From Felixounavirus LF110P4, in the sequence record OZ035790.1: DNA of 64,000 nucleotides; one strand, written 5' to 3'. Below, in pieces: positions 55,269-62,083 of the stretch. How positions within the stretch are numbered: position 1 is the stretch's first letter; each line of letters starts with the position of its first letter. The translations under genes and the position numbers were made by a program. Below the pieces are notes generated by a model, which saw only the letters and a program-made list of their open reading frames with translations, was not told the origin of the DNA and did not search any database.

Positions 55269-55760
55269 ATGAATAAGGGTTATTTTGAAAAATACCTAAT
55301 ATATGAACCAGATACAGGTTTATTAATTTGGAAAGTAACCCTTTGCAGTACCGCTATTGCTGGTAATGTGGCTGGCACAAGGTCTAAGAAGGGTTATATC
55401 CAAGTCCAGATAAATAAGAAGAGGTACTATGCACATAATATTGCATGGATTATGTCTGGGGGTGAGATACCAAGTGGATATGAGATAGACCACATAGACC
55501 TTGATAAAGCTAATAATAAGTTGGAGAACTTAAGACTTAGCACAAAGTCACAAAATCAGAGGAATAGGGGTATACACAAGAATAATAAGACTGGTGTGAA
55601 GGGTGTAAGTTTTTGTAAACAAACAGGTCTTTACAAAGCAAGAGTCATGCTTTACCATAAAGAATACTTTTGTGGAAGATTTAAAACAGTAGAAGAAGCA
55701 AAAGAAGCTGTAATTAAAAAGCGAATAGAACTTCATGGTGAGTTTGCAAGACATAACTAA
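55269..55760 (+). CDS. HNH homing endonuclease with AP2 domain
   Basis: YEPDTGLLIW, HNH_3-like EIDHIDLDKANNKLENLR, AP2-like GVKGVSFCKQTGLYKARV; inserted between prs-like and NAMPT-like genes. Confidence 0.75.
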   Translation: MNKGYFEKYLIYEPDTGLLIWKVTLCSTAIAGNVAGTRSKKGYIQVQINKKRYYAHNIAWIMSGGEIPSGYEIDHIDLDKANNKLENLRLSTKSQNQRNRGIHKNNKTGVKGVSFCKQTGLYKARVMLYHKEYFCGRFKTVEEAKEAVIKKRIELHGEFARHN

Positions 55761-55776: not shown

Positions 55777-57558
55777 ATGAGTAAGTCACTTTACGCAGTA
55801 CCAGCAGGTCTTAATGCAGATGCTTACAAGGCATCACATATATATCAGTATCCAGATGCTACACAGTATCTTATGTTGAACCTGACACCACGTAGTGACA
55901 AATGGTTTAACAGCCCCTTAGCAATTGACGGTGTAGTGGCTTTTGGTATTCAACGTTTTGTTAAAGACTACCTGATAGACCACTGGAATGCCACCTTCTT
56001 TGAACGTGACAAAAAAGAAGCAATTGACGAAATCTTAGAAGTCATGAACGGTGTTCTGGGTAAAGATGCTATTGGTCGAGAACATTGGGAAGCACTTCAC
56101 GACTTAGGTTATCTACCAGTTGAAGTATACGCTGTAGAAGAAGGTACAGTTGTTCCTATGCGTGTACCAATGATTGTCTTCCAGAATACTGTTTCAGGTT
56201 TCCATTGGGTAGCGGGGTATCTGGAAGATGCTTTCTCTGCTGAGATTTGGAAGGCTTGTACCATTGCAACTATTGCATTGCACTACAAACGTATCTGTAA
56301 GAAGTGGTCTGACCTTACTTGTGACAACGACTTGCATTTGCCTTATCAGTGCCATGATTTTGCTATGCGTGGTATGTCCGGCTTTACCGATGACGCATTT
56401 AACGCTGTAGGCCACTTAACCAGCTTTAAAGGAACTGATAGCTTCCCTGCTGTGTATACGGCTAAACGAATCTATGGACAGTCTTACCCAATATCTGATA
56501 TTGGTAGCTCTGTACCAGCCACTGAGCACTCTGTAATGTGTGCAAACATTGCTTGGGAAGGTGGTAATGAGTTGATTGAAGAAGAAAGACGCTTTAAAGG
56601 TGAGTTACAAACCTTCCGTCGTTTCTTAACAGAAACTTACCCAACTGGTATTGCAAGTATTGTTTCAGATACTTATAACTTCTGGAGAACTGTGTCAGAA
56701 ATCTTACCAGCACTCCGTAAAGAAATTATGGAACGTGATGGTAAACTGGTAATTCGCCCTGACTCTGGAGACCCTGTACATATTGTCACAGGTTATAAAG
56801 CAATCCACTTAGAGTGTGCTAAAAAGGCTTATTACGAGCACCTAAGCAAGCTTGAAGCCAGCGACACAATGTTGAATGCTGTTCTGAACATGAAGCTTGA
56901 AAACATCAACTATGGTATTGCTGGATGGCTACTGTCAGAAGGCTACGAAATGGTTGTTGACAGAGAAGACTTTGAAGTTGCTGATACAGTGCTGTTGAAA
57001 AACGCTTATATGGTTGGTTCTGCAAACGTTGTAACACGTCCTGTAGCGGAGATTGATGGAGCTATCAAGACACTGTATAACATCTTTGGGGGAACTATTA
57101 ACTCTAAAGGGTTTAAGGTACTGGATGAGCACATCGGCCTTATCTATGGTGACTCTATCACGCTGGAACGTGCAAACGAAATCCTGAAGCGTCTGTATGA
57201 AATGGGTTTTGCAAGCTCTAACGTAGTATTTGGTGTAGGCTCTTACACTTACCAGTACATGACTCGTGACACCTTTGCATTTGCTGTCAAAGCAACTCTT
57301 GCAAGCATTGGTGGTAAAGAGATTATGCTTGCAAAAGACCCTAAAACAGATAGTGGTGTTAAGAAATCTGCCTTTGGTGGTGTAGCACCTATGTGGGATG
57401 GTGAAAATCTGAAAGCTGTAGATGGCTATGGGTTCCAGAGCTTTGCAGATGCACTTGAACACCCAGCTTGTGCTTTACGTCTAGTCTTTAGTGACTCTGA
57501 GCAGTTCGGCTACACAACTCTTGGTGATATTCGAAATAATATTGACAAGCAGCTTTAA
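55777..57558 (+). CDS. nadV: nicotinamide phosphoribosyltransferase-like protein (NadV/NAMPT family; candidate NARP1 Namat)
   Basis: 593 aa; overall resemblance to NAMPT and genomic pairing with PRPP-synthetase-like gene. Confidence 0.7.
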   Translation: MSKSLYAVPAGLNADAYKASHIYQYPDATQYLMLNLTPRSDKWFNSPLAIDGVVAFGIQRFVKDYLIDHWNATFFERDKKEAIDEILEVMNGVLGKDAIGREHWEALHDLGYLPVEVYAVEEGTVVPMRVPMIVFQNTVSGFHWVAGYLEDAFSAEIWKACTIATIALHYKRICKKWSDLTCDNDLHLPYQCHDFAMRGMSGFTDDAFNAVGHLTSFKGTDSFPAVYTAKRIYGQSYPISDIGSSVPATEHSVMCANIAWEGGNELIEEERRFKGELQTFRRFLTETYPTGIASIVSDTYNFWRTVSEILPALRKEIMERDGKLVIRPDSGDPVHIVTGYKAIHLECAKKAYYEHLSKLEASDTMLNAVLNMKLENINYGIAGWLLSEGYEMVVDREDFEVADTVLLKNAYMVGSANVVTRPVAEIDGAIKTLYNIFGGTINSKGFKVLDEHIGLIYGDSITLERANEILKRLYEMGFASSNVVFGVGSYTYQYMTRDTFAFAVKATLASIGGKEIMLAKDPKTDSGVKKSAFGGVAPMWDGENLKAVDGYGFQSFADALEHPACALRLVFSDSEQFGYTTLGDIRNNIDKQL

Positions 57559-57570
57559 AAGTATATGATA

Positions 57571-57597
57571 AGAGGCTCCTACGGGAGCCTTTTTAAT
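57571..57597 (+). terminator. intrinsic terminator
   Basis: gaggctcc-tacg-ggagcc then TTTTT. Confidence 0.65.
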
Positions 57598-57611: not shown

Positions 57612-57956
57612 ATGGACAACCTTTCCATATGGTTTAACAAGAAACCTGTGCAACCGAAATACTTACAAGTTGCCTATACAGACATCCTTGAAGTTCTCGG
57701 TAAAGAAAAGTTTGAAAAGTTTTGTGAAGGTATCTACAATCACCACTGCCAATTTGCTACAAAAGAAGGTATGTTTGTCATAGAACAGTTCTTTGGCAGA
57801 GACCCAGATGACTACGAAGAGATTAGCTTTGTAATGAAATACATGATAGAGTATATTGAAAATCGTGGATTCGAAGTTAATCCTGAATTTTATGAACATG
57901 AGGGTGTGCCTTTAGCAAAAGGTTTTGATGGCATACTCGTTAACTGGACTTGGTGA
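57612..57956 (+). CDS. hypothetical protein
   Basis: 114 aa with ggag RBS. Confidence 0.4.
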   Translation: MDNLSIWFNKKPVQPKYLQVAYTDILEVLGKEKFEKFCEGIYNHHCQFATKEGMFVIEQFFGRDPDDYEEISFVMKYMIEYIENRGFEVNPEFYEHEGVPLAKGFDGILVNWTW

Positions 57957-57961
57957 AAATT

Positions 57962-58297
57962 ATGAAAATCAAAGAGATGAACATCAACATTGTCTTAGAA
58001 GAGCGTTGGGAGAACATCAAGAAACCTGAAAATGGTCATAAGTTCCTTAACAAAATCTTGGTAGCAGCTAAAGAAGAACTGACTGGAAAGGTTGCAGCAG
58101 CAATCACAATAAAGGTTTGTGTAAAAGGTCTTCCACAACATCACCAGTTTGCACTTGACGAGTTTAAAGAAAGCTTCTACAATCCAAACAAACAGATGCT
58201 TGAAAGTAACTTTGCAGTATCTACAAGTATCGTTCATGACAGAAGCTTTATCCTTTACAAAAATATGAGAGGTGAGTCATGCAAGCATATTGGATAG
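57962..58297 (+). CDS. hypothetical protein
   Basis: track ORF 57950 (TTG) trimmed to ATG 57962. Confidence 0.35.
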   Translation: MKIKEMNINIVLEERWENIKKPENGHKFLNKILVAAKEELTGKVAAAITIKVCVKGLPQHHQFALDEFKESFYNPNKQMLESNFAVSTSIVHDRSFILYKNMRGESCKHIG

Positions 58298-58455
58298 AAA
58301 TTTTACTGTCACTTGGTAGTGTAGCAGTATTTGTTTACCTCCTTTGTAAGTACTTTGCAGAGCACAAAAAATGTGACTACTGTAATGGAGAGGGGTACAT
58401 AAGGGCAGGATGTTGCCCTATGTGTGGTGGTTCTGGTAAAATGTTTAATAAGTAA
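58279..58455 (+). CDS. small membrane-anchored cysteine-rich protein (58 aa, absent from the >=60 aa track)
   Basis: ATG 58279 after aggtgag RBS; one TM helix (WIEILLSLGSVAVFVYLL) then two DnaJ-type CxxCxGxG motifs (CDYCNGEG, CPMCGGSG). Confidence 0.5.
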   Translation: MQAYWIEILLSLGSVAVFVYLLCKYFAEHKKCDYCNGEGYIRAGCCPMCGGSGKMFNK

Positions 58456-58483
58456 TTTAACAGTAAACTAAGAGGAAAGTATT

Positions 58484-60850
58484 ATGCGCATGGTAAACGA
58501 CCACGCAGAAGTGATTAAGAGTTCAACTTCTTTAGAGACGTCTCAAGCACAGATTACAATGACACCTGAAATGTTCAGCCTTTTGAGTTCTGGTGTATAT
58601 ACCTTTAAAGAGAGGGCAGTGATTCGTGAACTGTCATGTAACGCAGTAGATGCTCAGAAAGAAGCTGGAAAAGAGAACATCCCGTTCCATGTGCATTTGC
58701 CTACTCGTTTTGAGCCTTACTTTGAAGTTCGTGATTTTGGAACTGGATTGACTCATGATAAAGTTATGAGTTTGTATCTGAACTACGGAGCTTCTACGAA
58801 GAATGACTCTAATGATTACATTGGTGCAATGGGTATCGGCTCAAAGTCACCATTTGCAATTGCTCAGTCATTCACAGTATCTAGCTATGTTGATGGTGTT
58901 GTTAATAAGTACTCTGTTTATCTTGAGAATGGTATTCCTCAAGTAACTAAGCTGACAACTAACCCAACAAAAGAACCTAATGGTTTAGCTGTACGTGTGG
59001 CAGTTGCTGACCACCGTATCTCAAAGTTCTTTGAAGAAGCTGGTAATGTATACTCATACTTTGCTGTAAAACCAGAAAGTAATATTGTGTACGACGATGT
59101 ATTAGCAGATATGAACGTCATTGCCCGTGAAGAGGGTGTTTATGATGCCATGATTCATAAGCTAAGCTGGCGTTCTAGTGATAACAGGACAGAGTTTAAT
59201 GTGGTGATGGGTAACATTGCCTACCCTGTTAACATGGAAGCATTACTTGGTGATGATTTCTTCAAAGTATTGCCAGAATTTTTCCGTAGGAGCGTAGACC
59301 TTGTAAACATCTACATGCCTATTGGTTCAGTTGCTATTGCAGCTTCTCGTGAAGCATTGCAGATGAATGATACGACAAAAAATGTCATCATTGAGGCTAC
59401 CAAAAAGATAACTGAAGCCATTACAAAGGATGTTATCAAGAAAGTTAATAACCAACCTACACTCATGGATGCTGCACAGGCTTATGCTGAGTTACGTTTG
59501 AACTCACGAGAGATGTTTAATGCTGTGTGTCCAAAGCTAGAGTGGGGCGGTGTTAAGCTTGATTCTCTGGAAGAAGAATTGCTAAACATTCGTCGTGGGA
59601 TTATCTACGCAGAAGACGGCTCAGTCATTTATGAACGTGACGGTAAAGGTAATATTAAGGTTGATAGGAACGGAAACAACATCCCTAAAGTAGATTATCT
59701 TTATAACCCAGTTGCTTATGTCAAGTTCAACTCTTTAGAGAGTAAGATTCGTGCAACAGCACTTTCCTACACTCAAGAGGCAAGTATGTTCAATATCTTT
59801 GGTGCAATGCGTAAAAGCCAAATTGAACAGTTTTTGTTCGTGATTAATGACCGTCGCAATAAAAACGGTACTGAGAAGACTGTAGGACGCAATCAAATCT
59901 TGCGTGGTGCATGTCGAGACTACGCTAACGAGTCAAGTCTGTTCCACAGATACAATGGTATTGTGTTTGTATTCTCGACTGAAAAAGAGTTAGATGATTT
60001 AATCAATCTACACAAACTTGATAAAAGCTTGTTAAAGATTGTGAAAATGTCTGATAAGGAGCACCATTACCAGCGCAAAGAAGCTGTAAGGGGTGTGGTA
60101 AAACTCTGGAAAGCTGTTCCAGCAGAAGGTGTAGCTGCCTATAAAGAGGTTTCAGAGGACTTCGATACAATTGAAGAACCTCAGCTTTACATTAAGGCAG
60201 TTGGTGATACAGTTGATGGCGAATGTTTTTGCTCATCTCCAGAAGATGTAGCCAAGTCAGTTGCTAATGTTACAGGGAAGACAGTCTATGTTTTCCGAAA
60301 AGCAAATTGGAAAAAGATACCAGAAGACTGGATTGAAGTAGATGAGAAACTCTTGAACGACAGCTTAACTGATGTTCATTGGATTAATCATAACAGGTAT
60401 ATGACACGTATCTATATGAATGGTGTCCTTGACCTTACAAGCAGTTGGATTATTGCCAGAAACTTTACGTTCAATAACAGGAAGATTTCTCGTGGCTATT
60501 GCTATTCACGGGATACAAACAAAACTATCTTCCTAGAAGGAAATGAAGAGGCTGTAGAGGCAATGTTCGGTAAAATCCAATACGTTGCTGCACCATTTGC
60601 ATACACTTATACCATTAGTGTATTGAAAACTTTGAAAGACTGTCTTGACAACGATACAAAGCTTTACAAGAAAATTAAGAAAGCTGGTGACCGTATGGTT
60701 ATTAAGGTGACAAACTATCTTTCAAAAAGAAAACAAGAAAACTTCTTGCTTTCTCATTTAGATTGGAATAAAGTGTCACCCATCGAAGTGAGTAAGTTCT
60801 TAGGTTTTGATGTAAAATGTGTTCCAGAAGGGACTACAATTTACGATTAA
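58484..60850 (+). CDS. rIIA: rIIA-like protein (GHKL ATPase domain)
   Basis: GHKL motifs: N-box ELSCNAVDA, G1 VRDFGTGL, G2 GAMGIGSKS; 788 aa; followed by rIIB-sized gene. Confidence 0.7.
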   Translation: MRMVNDHAEVIKSSTSLETSQAQITMTPEMFSLLSSGVYTFKERAVIRELSCNAVDAQKEAGKENIPFHVHLPTRFEPYFEVRDFGTGLTHDKVMSLYLNYGASTKNDSNDYIGAMGIGSKSPFAIAQSFTVSSYVDGVVNKYSVYLENGIPQVTKLTTNPTKEPNGLAVRVAVADHRISKFFEEAGNVYSYFAVKPESNIVYDDVLADMNVIAREEGVYDAMIHKLSWRSSDNRTEFNVVMGNIAYPVNMEALLGDDFFKVLPEFFRRSVDLVNIYMPIGSVAIAASREALQMNDTTKNVIIEATKKITEAITKDVIKKVNNQPTLMDAAQAYAELRLNSREMFNAVCPKLEWGGVKLDSLEEELLNIRRGIIYAEDGSVIYERDGKGNIKVDRNGNNIPKVDYLYNPVAYVKFNSLESKIRATALSYTQEASMFNIFGAMRKSQIEQFLFVINDRRNKNGTEKTVGRNQILRGACRDYANESSLFHRYNGIVFVFSTEKELDDLINLHKLDKSLLKIVKMSDKEHHYQRKEAVRGVVKLWKAVPAEGVAAYKEVSEDFDTIEEPQLYIKAVGDTVDGECFCSSPEDVAKSVANVTGKTVYVFRKANWKKIPEDWIEVDEKLLNDSLTDVHWINHNRYMTRIYMNGVLDLTSSWIIARNFTFNNRKISRGYCYSRDTNKTIFLEGNEEAVEAMFGKIQYVAAPFAYTYTISVLKTLKDCLDNDTKLYKKIKKAGDRMVIKVTNYLSKRKQENFLLSHLDWNKVSPIEVSKFLGFDVKCVPEGTTIYD

Positions 60851-60929: not shown

Positions 60930-62039
60930 ATGACTACTAAAACTAAAGCACAGATTGACGCAGAAATTTACAAACTGGTTAAAGAAGGTAAGCTGACTAA
61001 AACAGCTATTGCACAGAAATTTAATACTTCAACCCGTTCAGTCGGTCGTGCTGTAGAGCGTCATGAAGCAACCTTAAAAGGGAATAAGAAGGCAACTTCT
61101 ACACCAGCTACGAAGACTTTGAAACAAGTTGCTAAGACCTTTAAGAAGAAAGCTGGAAAACCAGTTGAAAAGGTAGTTAAAGACGCTGTACAGAAAGCTC
61201 CAGTAAATAAACTGCACGAAGCTATGCAGAAAGATGACAAGATTGAGTACATGATTACTGGTGATTCTGTAATTATGACTTATGGTTCAGAATCTGAAAT
61301 TGTTGAGTCTACTCATCCGAACTATCAAGAGATTGTAGTTCATGTTGTGAAAGGTGAGTTCAAGAAAGCATTTGAACTGATGAACATTCGTAAGTCTATC
61401 GAAAACTTCACTCAGGGTGCTATCACAATCAAAGGCGACAAGCTATTCTACGGTGCTGTTGAGATGCGTTCTACTCTGGTTGACCGTATTCTTCACATGA
61501 TGAAGACTGGAGACAAAGGTTTTGAACGCCTTGTGATGTTCTTCGAAAAACTGATGGAAAACCCATCTAAAGACTCTGTAGAACAACTTTGGGGCTTCGT
61601 ATCTCACCTTGATGTCGAAATTGATGAGGAAGGCTACATCATTGGTTGGAAGAAAGTATCCACTCGTGAAGGCAAGCTGGTTGACTCCCACACCTACAAA
61701 GTACCTAATGATTTGGGTAACGTTGTAGAAATGCCACGTTGGATGGTTGATAATAACCGTAACGTGACTTGCTCTCAAGGTCTTCACGTTGGTGCTTGGG
61801 ATTATGTTCGTTGCTTCTCAGGTGATACAATTCTGAAGGTTCGTGTCCATCCACGAGATGTTGTATCTGTTCCAACTGATTACAATGATATGAAGATGCG
61901 CTCGTCTCGTTATGAAGTTGCAGCAATCGTTGATAATCAACGTAAGGTACTGAAAGCGTGGGATGGCAAGACTGAAGCTCTGCATGTCATCGTTGGCACT
62001 GCTGGTGAACTTATCTCTCAGCGTAAACGTGAAATCTAA
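60930..62039 (+). CDS. rIIB: rIIB-like protein
   Basis: 369 aa directly downstream of rIIA-like gene; biased codon usage; call by synteny only. Confidence 0.45.
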   Translation: MTTKTKAQIDAEIYKLVKEGKLTKTAIAQKFNTSTRSVGRAVERHEATLKGNKKATSTPATKTLKQVAKTFKKKAGKPVEKVVKDAVQKAPVNKLHEAMQKDDKIEYMITGDSVIMTYGSESEIVESTHPNYQEIVVHVVKGEFKKAFELMNIRKSIENFTQGAITIKGDKLFYGAVEMRSTLVDRILHMMKTGDKGFERLVMFFEKLMENPSKDSVEQLWGFVSHLDVEIDEEGYIIGWKKVSTREGKLVDSHTYKVPNDLGNVVEMPRWMVDNNRNVTCSQGLHVGAWDYVRCFSGDTILKVRVHPRDVVSVPTDYNDMKMRSSRYEVAAIVDNQRKVLKAWDGKTEALHVIVGTAGELISQRKREI

Positions 62040-62053
62040 TAAGTAATTTCTTA

Positions 62054-62083
62054 AAAGGCTGCTTCGGCGGCCTTTTTTATTTG
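62054..62083 (+). terminator. intrinsic terminator (UUCG tetraloop)
   Basis: ggctgc-ttcg-gcggcc then TTTTTTATTT. Confidence 0.65.

Follow-up and report, generated by a model that had tools for sequence, protein, structure and literature searches.

We analysed a stretch of 64,000 nucleotides of Felixounavirus LF110P4 (sequence record OZ035790.1), referred to below as the window, in which an open reading frame (ORF) of 58 amino acids (aa) lies directly 5' of the phage genes rIIA and rIIB. The ORF is a real protein-coding gene under purifying selection, as judged from comparison of its sequence with those of its relatives, and its product is predicted to be a transmembrane (TM)-anchored minimal version of the zinc knuckle of the Bacillus protein anti-TRAP and of DnaJ. 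With a probability of roughly 60%, we read the protein as a small binding module at the cytoplasmic face of the inner membrane, where it would tether or block a partner protein to the conditional benefit of the phage. The ORF, the membrane helix and the DnaJ-like motif are already present in public annotation.

Coding evidence and distribution of the family

To assess the coding status of the ORF, we compared 35 copies from the Ounavirinae, comprising the window, five GenBank records and 29 IMG/VR contigs. All 35 are intact and span 58–60 codons. Across the 20 distinct nucleotide versions in Felixounavirus, the pooled proportions of synonymous (pS) and nonsynonymous (pN) differences are 0.241 and 0.022, respectively, giving a pN/pS of 0.09, while between genera nonsynonymous divergence (dN) amounts to 0.35–0.46 and synonymous divergence (dS) is saturated at 1.1–1.9. 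The variable sites are distributed over the three codon positions as 7/5/29 (chi-square p = 2e-6), the same third-position bias as in rIIA (21/12/164); the 111-aa gene immediately upstream gives 10/3/44. A first-pass annotation, made by a model from the letters of the window alone, had proposed this comparison of synonymous and nonsynonymous change in related phages as a check on the ORF and had named disruption in close relatives as the outcome that would speak against it; none of the 35 copies is disrupted.

What the same annotation had said about the reading frame could be confirmed from the letters (Table 1). The ORF is present on the plus strand with an identical translation, its ATG at 58279 is preceded by an aggtgag ribosome-binding site, and it overlaps the 3' end of the upstream gene in another frame, by 19 nt. 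Positions 58271–58278 are without variation in 18 Felixounavirus copies, and GGAG-type sites lie 5' of the orthologues in the other genera examined. Only one of the 19 overlap positions is variable among Felixounaviruses, and an overlap with the upstream gene is present in Felixouna-, Moogle- and Suspvirus alike, so translational coupling of the 58-aa ORF to the 111-aa gene is likely. Fusion of the two genes by a -1 frameshift was considered and rejected: the overlap holds no X_XXY_YYZ slippery site, the small ORF has its own conserved Shine–Dalgarno sequence and ATG, and the corresponding pair in phiEa21-4 does not overlap.

Some database entries of the gene are frameshifted, namely the 63-aa products P0003 and P0005-P0007 and the phiWec174 and GE_vB_NS7 records. 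The latter two were examined and carry one single-base deletion each, downstream of which the codons still fit the original frame; both records are error-prone, as a further coding sequence (CDS) of phiWec174 bears a frameshift flag and GE_vB_NS7 has the label UNVERIFIED. Pseudogenisation, as the frameshifted entries might suggest, was rejected because the two records examined represent single-base deletions in error-prone entries. The +1 frame (one base downstream) is open on the plus strand from about 58347 to 58471, that is, over the half of the gene with the zinc-finger motifs and for 16 nt past its stop, and any single-base deletion therefore gives the recurrent 63-aa '...IQEQVVALCVVVLVKCLISNLTVN' product found in some entries.

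The first-pass annotation had also called the ORF unannotated. This holds for its own ORF track, which had a 60-aa cutoff, but not for public records, in which the gene is Felix O1 ORF131 (Felix01p243, NP_945023.1), recorded as a 'hypothetical membrane protein', and in which the identical protein is found on 315 contigs under names such as 'membrane protein', 'DnaJ-class molecular chaperone' and 'Phage protein'. About 170 Felix O1-like phages that infect Escherichia, Salmonella and Shigella have 93–97% identity to the 2-kb region around the ORF. The protein matches the profile of phrog_3931 at E = 1.5e-33 (residues 1–58 against profile positions 1–59 of 59), the family to which the orthologue of phage SUSP1 was also assigned by Adler et al. 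(PMC11879866). Members of phrog_3931, among them Felix O1 ORF131, SUSP1 gp080, phiEa21-4 gp117 and RB49p046, are 52–60 aa long and combine a TM helix with two cysteine motifs. The PHROG is one of function unknown, its members are all uncharacterised, and we found no paper in the literature that characterises the 58-aa protein.

The wider family was sought with an exhaustive phmmer search of 1.84 billion representatives and a profile search of 5.8 billion proteins. These returned just 18 clusters of 52–60 aa, plus truncated or frameshifted versions, and all clusters with a named source come from phage. The remaining matches have in common only a generic CxxCxGxG pair inside unrelated larger proteins, for example DnaJ and long phage proteins without an assigned function. 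Krischvirus, which comprises the RB49 group of T4-like phages, has a distant homologue of 52–55 aa with the same arrangement, although not near rIIA; homologues of the Ounavirinae neighbour genes were sought at the Krischvirus locus and none was found. In Escherichia phage Ec_Makalu_002, a Krischvirus, the homologue has 52 aa (L006, 2495–2653) and overlaps the 3' end of the thioredoxin gene nrdC by 11 nt. The Kolesnikvirus orthologue, phiEa21-4 gp117 (54 aa; L050, 3839–4003), has extra cysteines that are placed differently (SCCKHC and CVCPFC), and its tail is acidic (GEDD), not Lys-rich; because it differs in both respects, neither the accessory cysteines nor the tail charge is fixed in the family.

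Cysteine motifs, membrane helix and fold

Searching all six frames of the window for C..C.G.G gave two matches in all, both in the 58-aa ORF. Composition-matched shuffles contain on average 0.13 single motifs per window, and the paired motif occurred in 0 of 200 shuffles. In 15 family representatives, C32, C35, G37, G39, C46, C49, G51 and G53 are invariant. Cys45, which precedes the second motif, is common ('CC') but missing in P0031 (PCPYC), and is therefore not a required ligand, leaving a four-Cys site as the core. By analogy with anti-TRAP, the two CxxCxGxG motifs are best read as forming one Zn(Cys)4 centre. The description of the protein in the first-pass annotation as carrying two DnaJ-type zinc-finger repeats thus stands in part: the two motifs are present and the family profile matches the Cys-rich domain of DnaJ (1EXK, E = 3.6e-5) in a search against the PDB, but the motifs would build a single zinc centre, not two fingers.

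The N-terminal TM helix that had been proposed is supported by hydrophobicity and by the structure model. In 13 family members the 19-residue Kyte–Doolittle mean ranges from 1.97 to 2.55 (2.11 for the protein of the window), and AlphaFold2 (AF2) places a helix at residues 3–27 with a predicted local distance difference test score (pLDDT) of 76–88. Two polar residues of the helix, E7 and S11, hardly vary (at least 90% of the family sequences have them), which suggests a role for the helix beyond passive anchoring. The N-terminal tail is devoid of Lys and Arg in 13 of 13 members, whereas the C-terminal tail has one to six, in most members with Lys or Arg right after the helix. This charge distribution moderately favours an N-out/C-in orientation, and the lack of Lys and Arg before the helix argues against a signal peptide.

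With an alignment of seven sequences, the AF2 model of the zinc domain was unusable (pLDDT about 50). The prediction was repeated with 15 sequences and reached a pLDDT of 78, with the helix at residues 3–27 followed by short beta pairs. This helix is the only one in the model, which has no counterpart of the C-terminal helix through which anti-TRAP forms trimers. The top three PDB matches in Foldseek are the anti-TRAP structures 3LD0, 3LCZ and 2BX9 (23–29 columns, root mean square deviation (rmsd) 1.0–1.9 Å, 34–39% identity, probability 0.89–0.94, E = 0.2–0.6). The DnaJ Cys-rich domain 1EXK was matched over 38 columns with an rmsd of 3.6 Å and 29% identity (probability 0.33, E = 1.7). Profile alignments to anti-TRAP 3LCZ and 2BX9 are ungapped, with equal spacing between the motifs.

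Anti-TRAP (AT, RtpA) is a zinc-dependent protein of 53 residues in which two CXXCXGXG motifs make up a single zinc-binding segment, and it binds and blocks TRAP (PMC2896485). The phage protein resembles it in being tiny, in having exactly two CxxCxGxG motifs and, as predicted, one zinc, and in the spacing of 10 residues from the second Cys of motif 1 to the first Cys of motif 2, which is common to both. In contrast, anti-TRAP is soluble and forms trimers and dodecamers through a C-terminal helix, whereas the phage protein has an N-terminal TM helix instead and ends five residues past motif 2; furthermore, TRAP, the target, is a Bacillus protein. With DnaJ/Hsp40 (PF00684, 1EXK) the phage protein has in common the CxxCxGxG motif with its invariant glycines. 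However, DnaJ carries a J domain, C-terminal substrate-binding domains and four motifs, from which two interleaved zinc centres are built, while the phage protein has two motifs for what would be one centre, and a search for a J domain with Pfam at E <= 10 gave no match.

A similar architecture has been described in plants. The thylakoid protein FIP joins a membrane anchor to a C4 finger made of two CXXCXGXG repeats; its binding to FtsH5 was seen in two-hybrid and pull-down assays (PMC5915565). Like the phage protein, it has one anchor and no J domain, and its repeats face the stroma, the equivalent of the cytoplasm; unlike the phage protein, it is eukaryotic, plastid-targeted and larger, and it is reported only from land plants (PMC5915565). 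This likeness is one of architecture, taken from the description, and constitutes resemblance, not homology. For the phage protein, the FIP partner FtsH5 is a lead and not evidence. No plant protein is among the 25 matches of the exhaustive HMMER search. LQY1, CYO1 and Orange are further membrane-anchored DnaJ-like zinc-finger proteins.

A fold search against BFVD yielded 181 matches at E <= 10. The 50 matches listed are mostly short phage proteins, nearly all of them unnamed or uncharacterised, and several bear the names 'DnaJ-like' or 'Anti-TRAP domain-containing'. They include proteins of Pseudomonas phage ZC03 (64 aa), Pectobacterium phage Arno18 (52 aa) and uncultured Caudovirales (52–65 aa), and among these listed matches many unrelated phages encode very small proteins with a predicted helix-plus-zinc-knuckle shape. 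Judging by them, the class is not rare but merely unstudied. The earlier statement that small membrane-tethered zinc-finger proteins are uncommon is hence not obviously correct, given the 181 BFVD matches and the same layout in plant FIP.

Proposed function and competing explanations

In four Ounavirinae genera, namely Felixounavirus, Mooglevirus (Sf14, HP1), Suspvirus (SUSP1, mistaenkt) and Kolesnikvirus (phiEa21-4), the gene order is nadV, one to three small genes, the 58-aa gene and rIIA-rIIB. The slot directly 5' of rIIA is thus taken by the 58-aa gene in Felix O1, Sf14, HP1, SUSP1, mistaenkt, phiEa21-4 and the window. The gene is probably part of a five-gene unit (hyp114, hyp111, the small gene, rIIA and rIIB), because a strong sigma-70-like promoter is predicted at 57542 and the next strong terminator follows only after rIIB. 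This promoter, the probable start of the unit, abuts a predicted terminator hairpin; transcripts from it would start inside the hairpin and so escape termination, whereas the hairpin would stop read-through from nadV. The scan of the plus strand between 57593 and 62053 found one weak terminator candidate only, inside rIIA at 59122. In Felix O1, reverse transcription PCR (RT-PCR) showed a common peak at 25 min for ORFs 125–130 and for ORF1, which is rIIA (PMC3185647).

We favour the explanation that the protein is a bitopic inner-membrane protein whose single TM helix (about residues 5–25) separates a very short N-terminus in the periplasm from a cytoplasmic module of 27 residues. The four cysteines of the two CxxCxGxG motifs would bind one zinc and form a knuckle of the anti-TRAP/DnaJ type about 3–8 residues from the membrane surface. 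The module is too small for an enzyme and most likely binds a partner protein, thereby tethering or blocking it, and the polar helix face with E7 and S11 may add helix–helix contacts. The first-pass annotation had suggested a host chaperone or membrane complex as a possible target. Translation would start from the gene's own Shine–Dalgarno sequence and ATG, probably coupled to the upstream gene, and transcription would probably occur together with rIIA-rIIB in the middle phase. The benefit would be conditional on particular hosts, prophages or defences, with basic replication independent of the protein.

The sole functional datum comes from the SUSP1 orthologue AVU07_agp080 (SUSP1 57142–57321, phrog_3931, cross-referenced to Felix01p243), which was scored as 'Not Fit' by CRISPRi-ART (7 guides, mean 1.05, p = 0.11; PMC11879866). 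Because its knockdown caused no significant fitness defect, the small gene is accessory in laboratory conditions. In the same screen, rIIA was scored as 'Semi-Fit' and rIIB as 'Not Fit', and rII knockdown lowered plating only on RexAB-expressing cells (PMC11879866). The PADLOC models for defence and counter-defence gave a single, sub-threshold match to the 58-aa protein (PDC-M01B, E = 0.018, 12.3 bits), located in the motif region.

Several points weigh against the binding-module explanation or the observations on which it is built. The E-values of the anti-TRAP matches in Foldseek are non-significant because the module is tiny. The Pfam and NCBIfam models score below their cut-offs, with 18.3 against 32.7 bits for the DnaJ Cys-rich domain (PF00684), 11.7 against 32 bits and 14.4 against 65 bits for the anti-TRAP models PF15777 and NF058604, and 12–19 bits against 338–548 for the NCBIfam DnaJ models. 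Zinc binding is deduced from the motifs only, and the explanation names no specific partner. The C-terminal domain is approximately neutral or acidic in Moogle- and Suspvirus, which makes the positive-inside argument for the orientation only a moderate one. The coding status is based on comparative evidence, and ORF131 is absent from the ORFs in the RT-PCR table of Felix O1 (PMC3185647). Finally, the synteny with rII counts as one evolutionary observation because it was inherited within one subfamily, and Krischvirus, whose homologue overlaps nrdC, does not have it.

Of the rival explanations the one that survives best, although we consider it unlikely, regards the protein as a third rII component that anchors or positions RIIA and RIIB at the inner membrane or engages a Rex-like exclusion effector. 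In such a three-part rII module of the Ounavirinae, the 58-aa protein would be the sole integral membrane subunit; it would retain RIIA and RIIB at the inner membrane by means of the zinc knuckle, or contact the membrane effector of Rex-like abortive-infection systems directly with the conserved E7/S11 face of its helix. The position of its gene directly 5' of rIIA-rIIB in Felixouna-, Moogle-, Susp- and Kolesnikvirus agrees with this, as does the fact that no other protein encoded in the five-gene unit has a TM-grade hydrophobic segment (Kyte–Doolittle mean of 2.11 against 1.29 for RIIA and 0.69 for RIIB). Like rIIA and rIIB, the gene is dispensable on a Rex-free host (PMC11879866), and its mean guide fitness of 1.05 is nearer to that of rIIA (1.83) than to those of the upstream genes (-0.5 to -0.6). 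However, polarity on rIIA may account for the raised guide score, the synteny represents a single inherited arrangement, and the Krischvirus homologue adjoins nrdC, not rIIA. T4 rIIA.1, which occupies the equivalent slot and was tried as a counterpart, is unrelated and has neither cysteines nor a TM segment, so T4 rII works without such a protein. How the rII proteins work at the membrane is a question that dates from Benzer's time and, to our knowledge, still awaits an answer. If the small protein were functionally linked to rII, it would open a fresh approach to the membrane mechanism of rII and Rex, and a three-part module, if true, would provide a physical handle on rII action at the membrane.

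We regard it as quite improbable that the topology is reversed (N-in/C-out), with a periplasmic, disulfide-bonded Cys domain that serves superinfection exclusion or lysis timing in the manner of small T4-type membrane proteins. The soluble part does hold five to six cysteines including the vicinal CC, some genera have an acidic to neutral C-terminal domain, and neighbouring genes are annotated as lysis inhibitors. Yet Lys or Arg precedes the helix in none of the 13 members, unlike in a signal peptide or signal anchor, CxxCxGxG with its invariant glycines is the signature of a zinc knuckle, and the extra cysteine is dispensable in P0031.

Very unlikely, in our view, is a modulator of host inner-membrane quality control (FtsH, for example) or of the DnaK system. 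It is suggested by analogy with FIP, which has a similar architecture and binds FtsH5 (PMC5915565), and by the DnaJ-type motif. The argument is one of analogy alone, with a likeness of architecture and motif and a counterpart reported only from land plants; the genomic context contains no pointer to FtsH or DnaK, and no toxicity or fitness signal accompanies the gene.

Disulfide-isomerase-like activity has been reported for DnaJ-type zinc fingers, and the protein might accordingly be a membrane-proximal redox or holdase factor instead of a simple binding module. This would be in line with the 'chaperone' names given by some annotators, with the overlap of the Krischvirus homologue with the thioredoxin/glutaredoxin gene nrdC and with the extra cysteine conserved beside motif 2. 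We nevertheless consider it highly improbable for a module of 27 residues with a single predicted zinc centre, as the 'chaperone' names go back to motif matches under the family thresholds and the extra cysteine is not universal. That the ORF is a chance reading frame, or that a mere non-coding spacer separates the upstream gene from rIIA, as the short length of the ORF and the few frameshifted database versions listed above might suggest, is effectively refuted by the clear purifying selection with third-position variation, by the lack of the paired motif in all 200 shuffles and by the original frame still matched downstream of the deletions in both error-prone records examined.

In its immediate effect, the finding of a predicted small membrane-anchored knuckle protein mainly mends a gap in the ORF track of the first-pass annotation, as the gene had been catalogued and is accessory. 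Small phage proteins built on a single knuckle of the DnaJ/anti-TRAP type nevertheless seem to exist in large numbers, all of them uncharacterised, and a well-conserved and easily manipulated example from coliphages such as SUSP1 or the Felix O1 group would be a good entry point.

Features of the locus

Table 1. Features at and around the gene of the 58-aa protein, in window coordinates
Feature	Position	Strand	Basis or remark
CDS of the 58-aa protein, stop included	58279..58455	+	phrog_3931 match, purifying selection
Shine–Dalgarno sequence AGGTGAG	58270..58276	+	AGGTGA core ends 3 nt 5' of the ATG
Overlap with the 3' end of the upstream 111-aa gene	58279..58297 (19 nt)	+	Different frame
TM helix, about residues 5–25	58291..58353	+	Predicted; Kyte–Doolittle 19-residue mean 2.11 (residues 5–23)
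First CxxCxGxG, CDYCNGEG, residues 32–39	58372..58395	+	Six-frame motif search
Cys45 and second CxxCxGxG, C-CPMCGGSG, residues 45–53	58411..58437	+	Six-frame motif search; CPMCGGSG starts at 58414
111-aa gene 5' of the 58-aa ORF	57962..58297	+	phrog_4262, Felix O1 ORF130; function unassigned
rIIA	58484..60850	+	phrog_612, E = 3e-189; 28 nt 3' of the small gene
rIIB	60930..62039	+	phrog_609, E = 5e-89; followed by a terminator-like hairpin, 62053–62076
Sigma-70-like promoter, TTGACA-16-TATGAT (11/12)	57542..57569	+	Predicted; consensus scan only
Terminator hairpin, 10-bp stem	57570..57593	+	Predicted; consensus scan only; just after the nadV stop, abuts the promoter

Two further observations concern the genes upstream. 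The 114-aa ORF at 57612–57956 on the plus strand (phrog_20372) sits in a mosaic slot: in 18 Felixounaviruses, this stretch aligns inconsistently, with 79% variable columns and no codon periodicity, and several close relatives match just 83% of the 2-kb query, in two pieces. Sequence comparison thus suggests that the slot holds different genes, or none, in relatives. A gene for an HNH homing endonuclease (phrog_99) is located at 55269–55760 on the plus strand, between the genes for phosphoribosyl pyrophosphate (PRPP) synthetase and nadV. It is present in Felix O1 and SUSP1 and not at that position in Sf14 and mistaenkt, which fits a mobile insertion.

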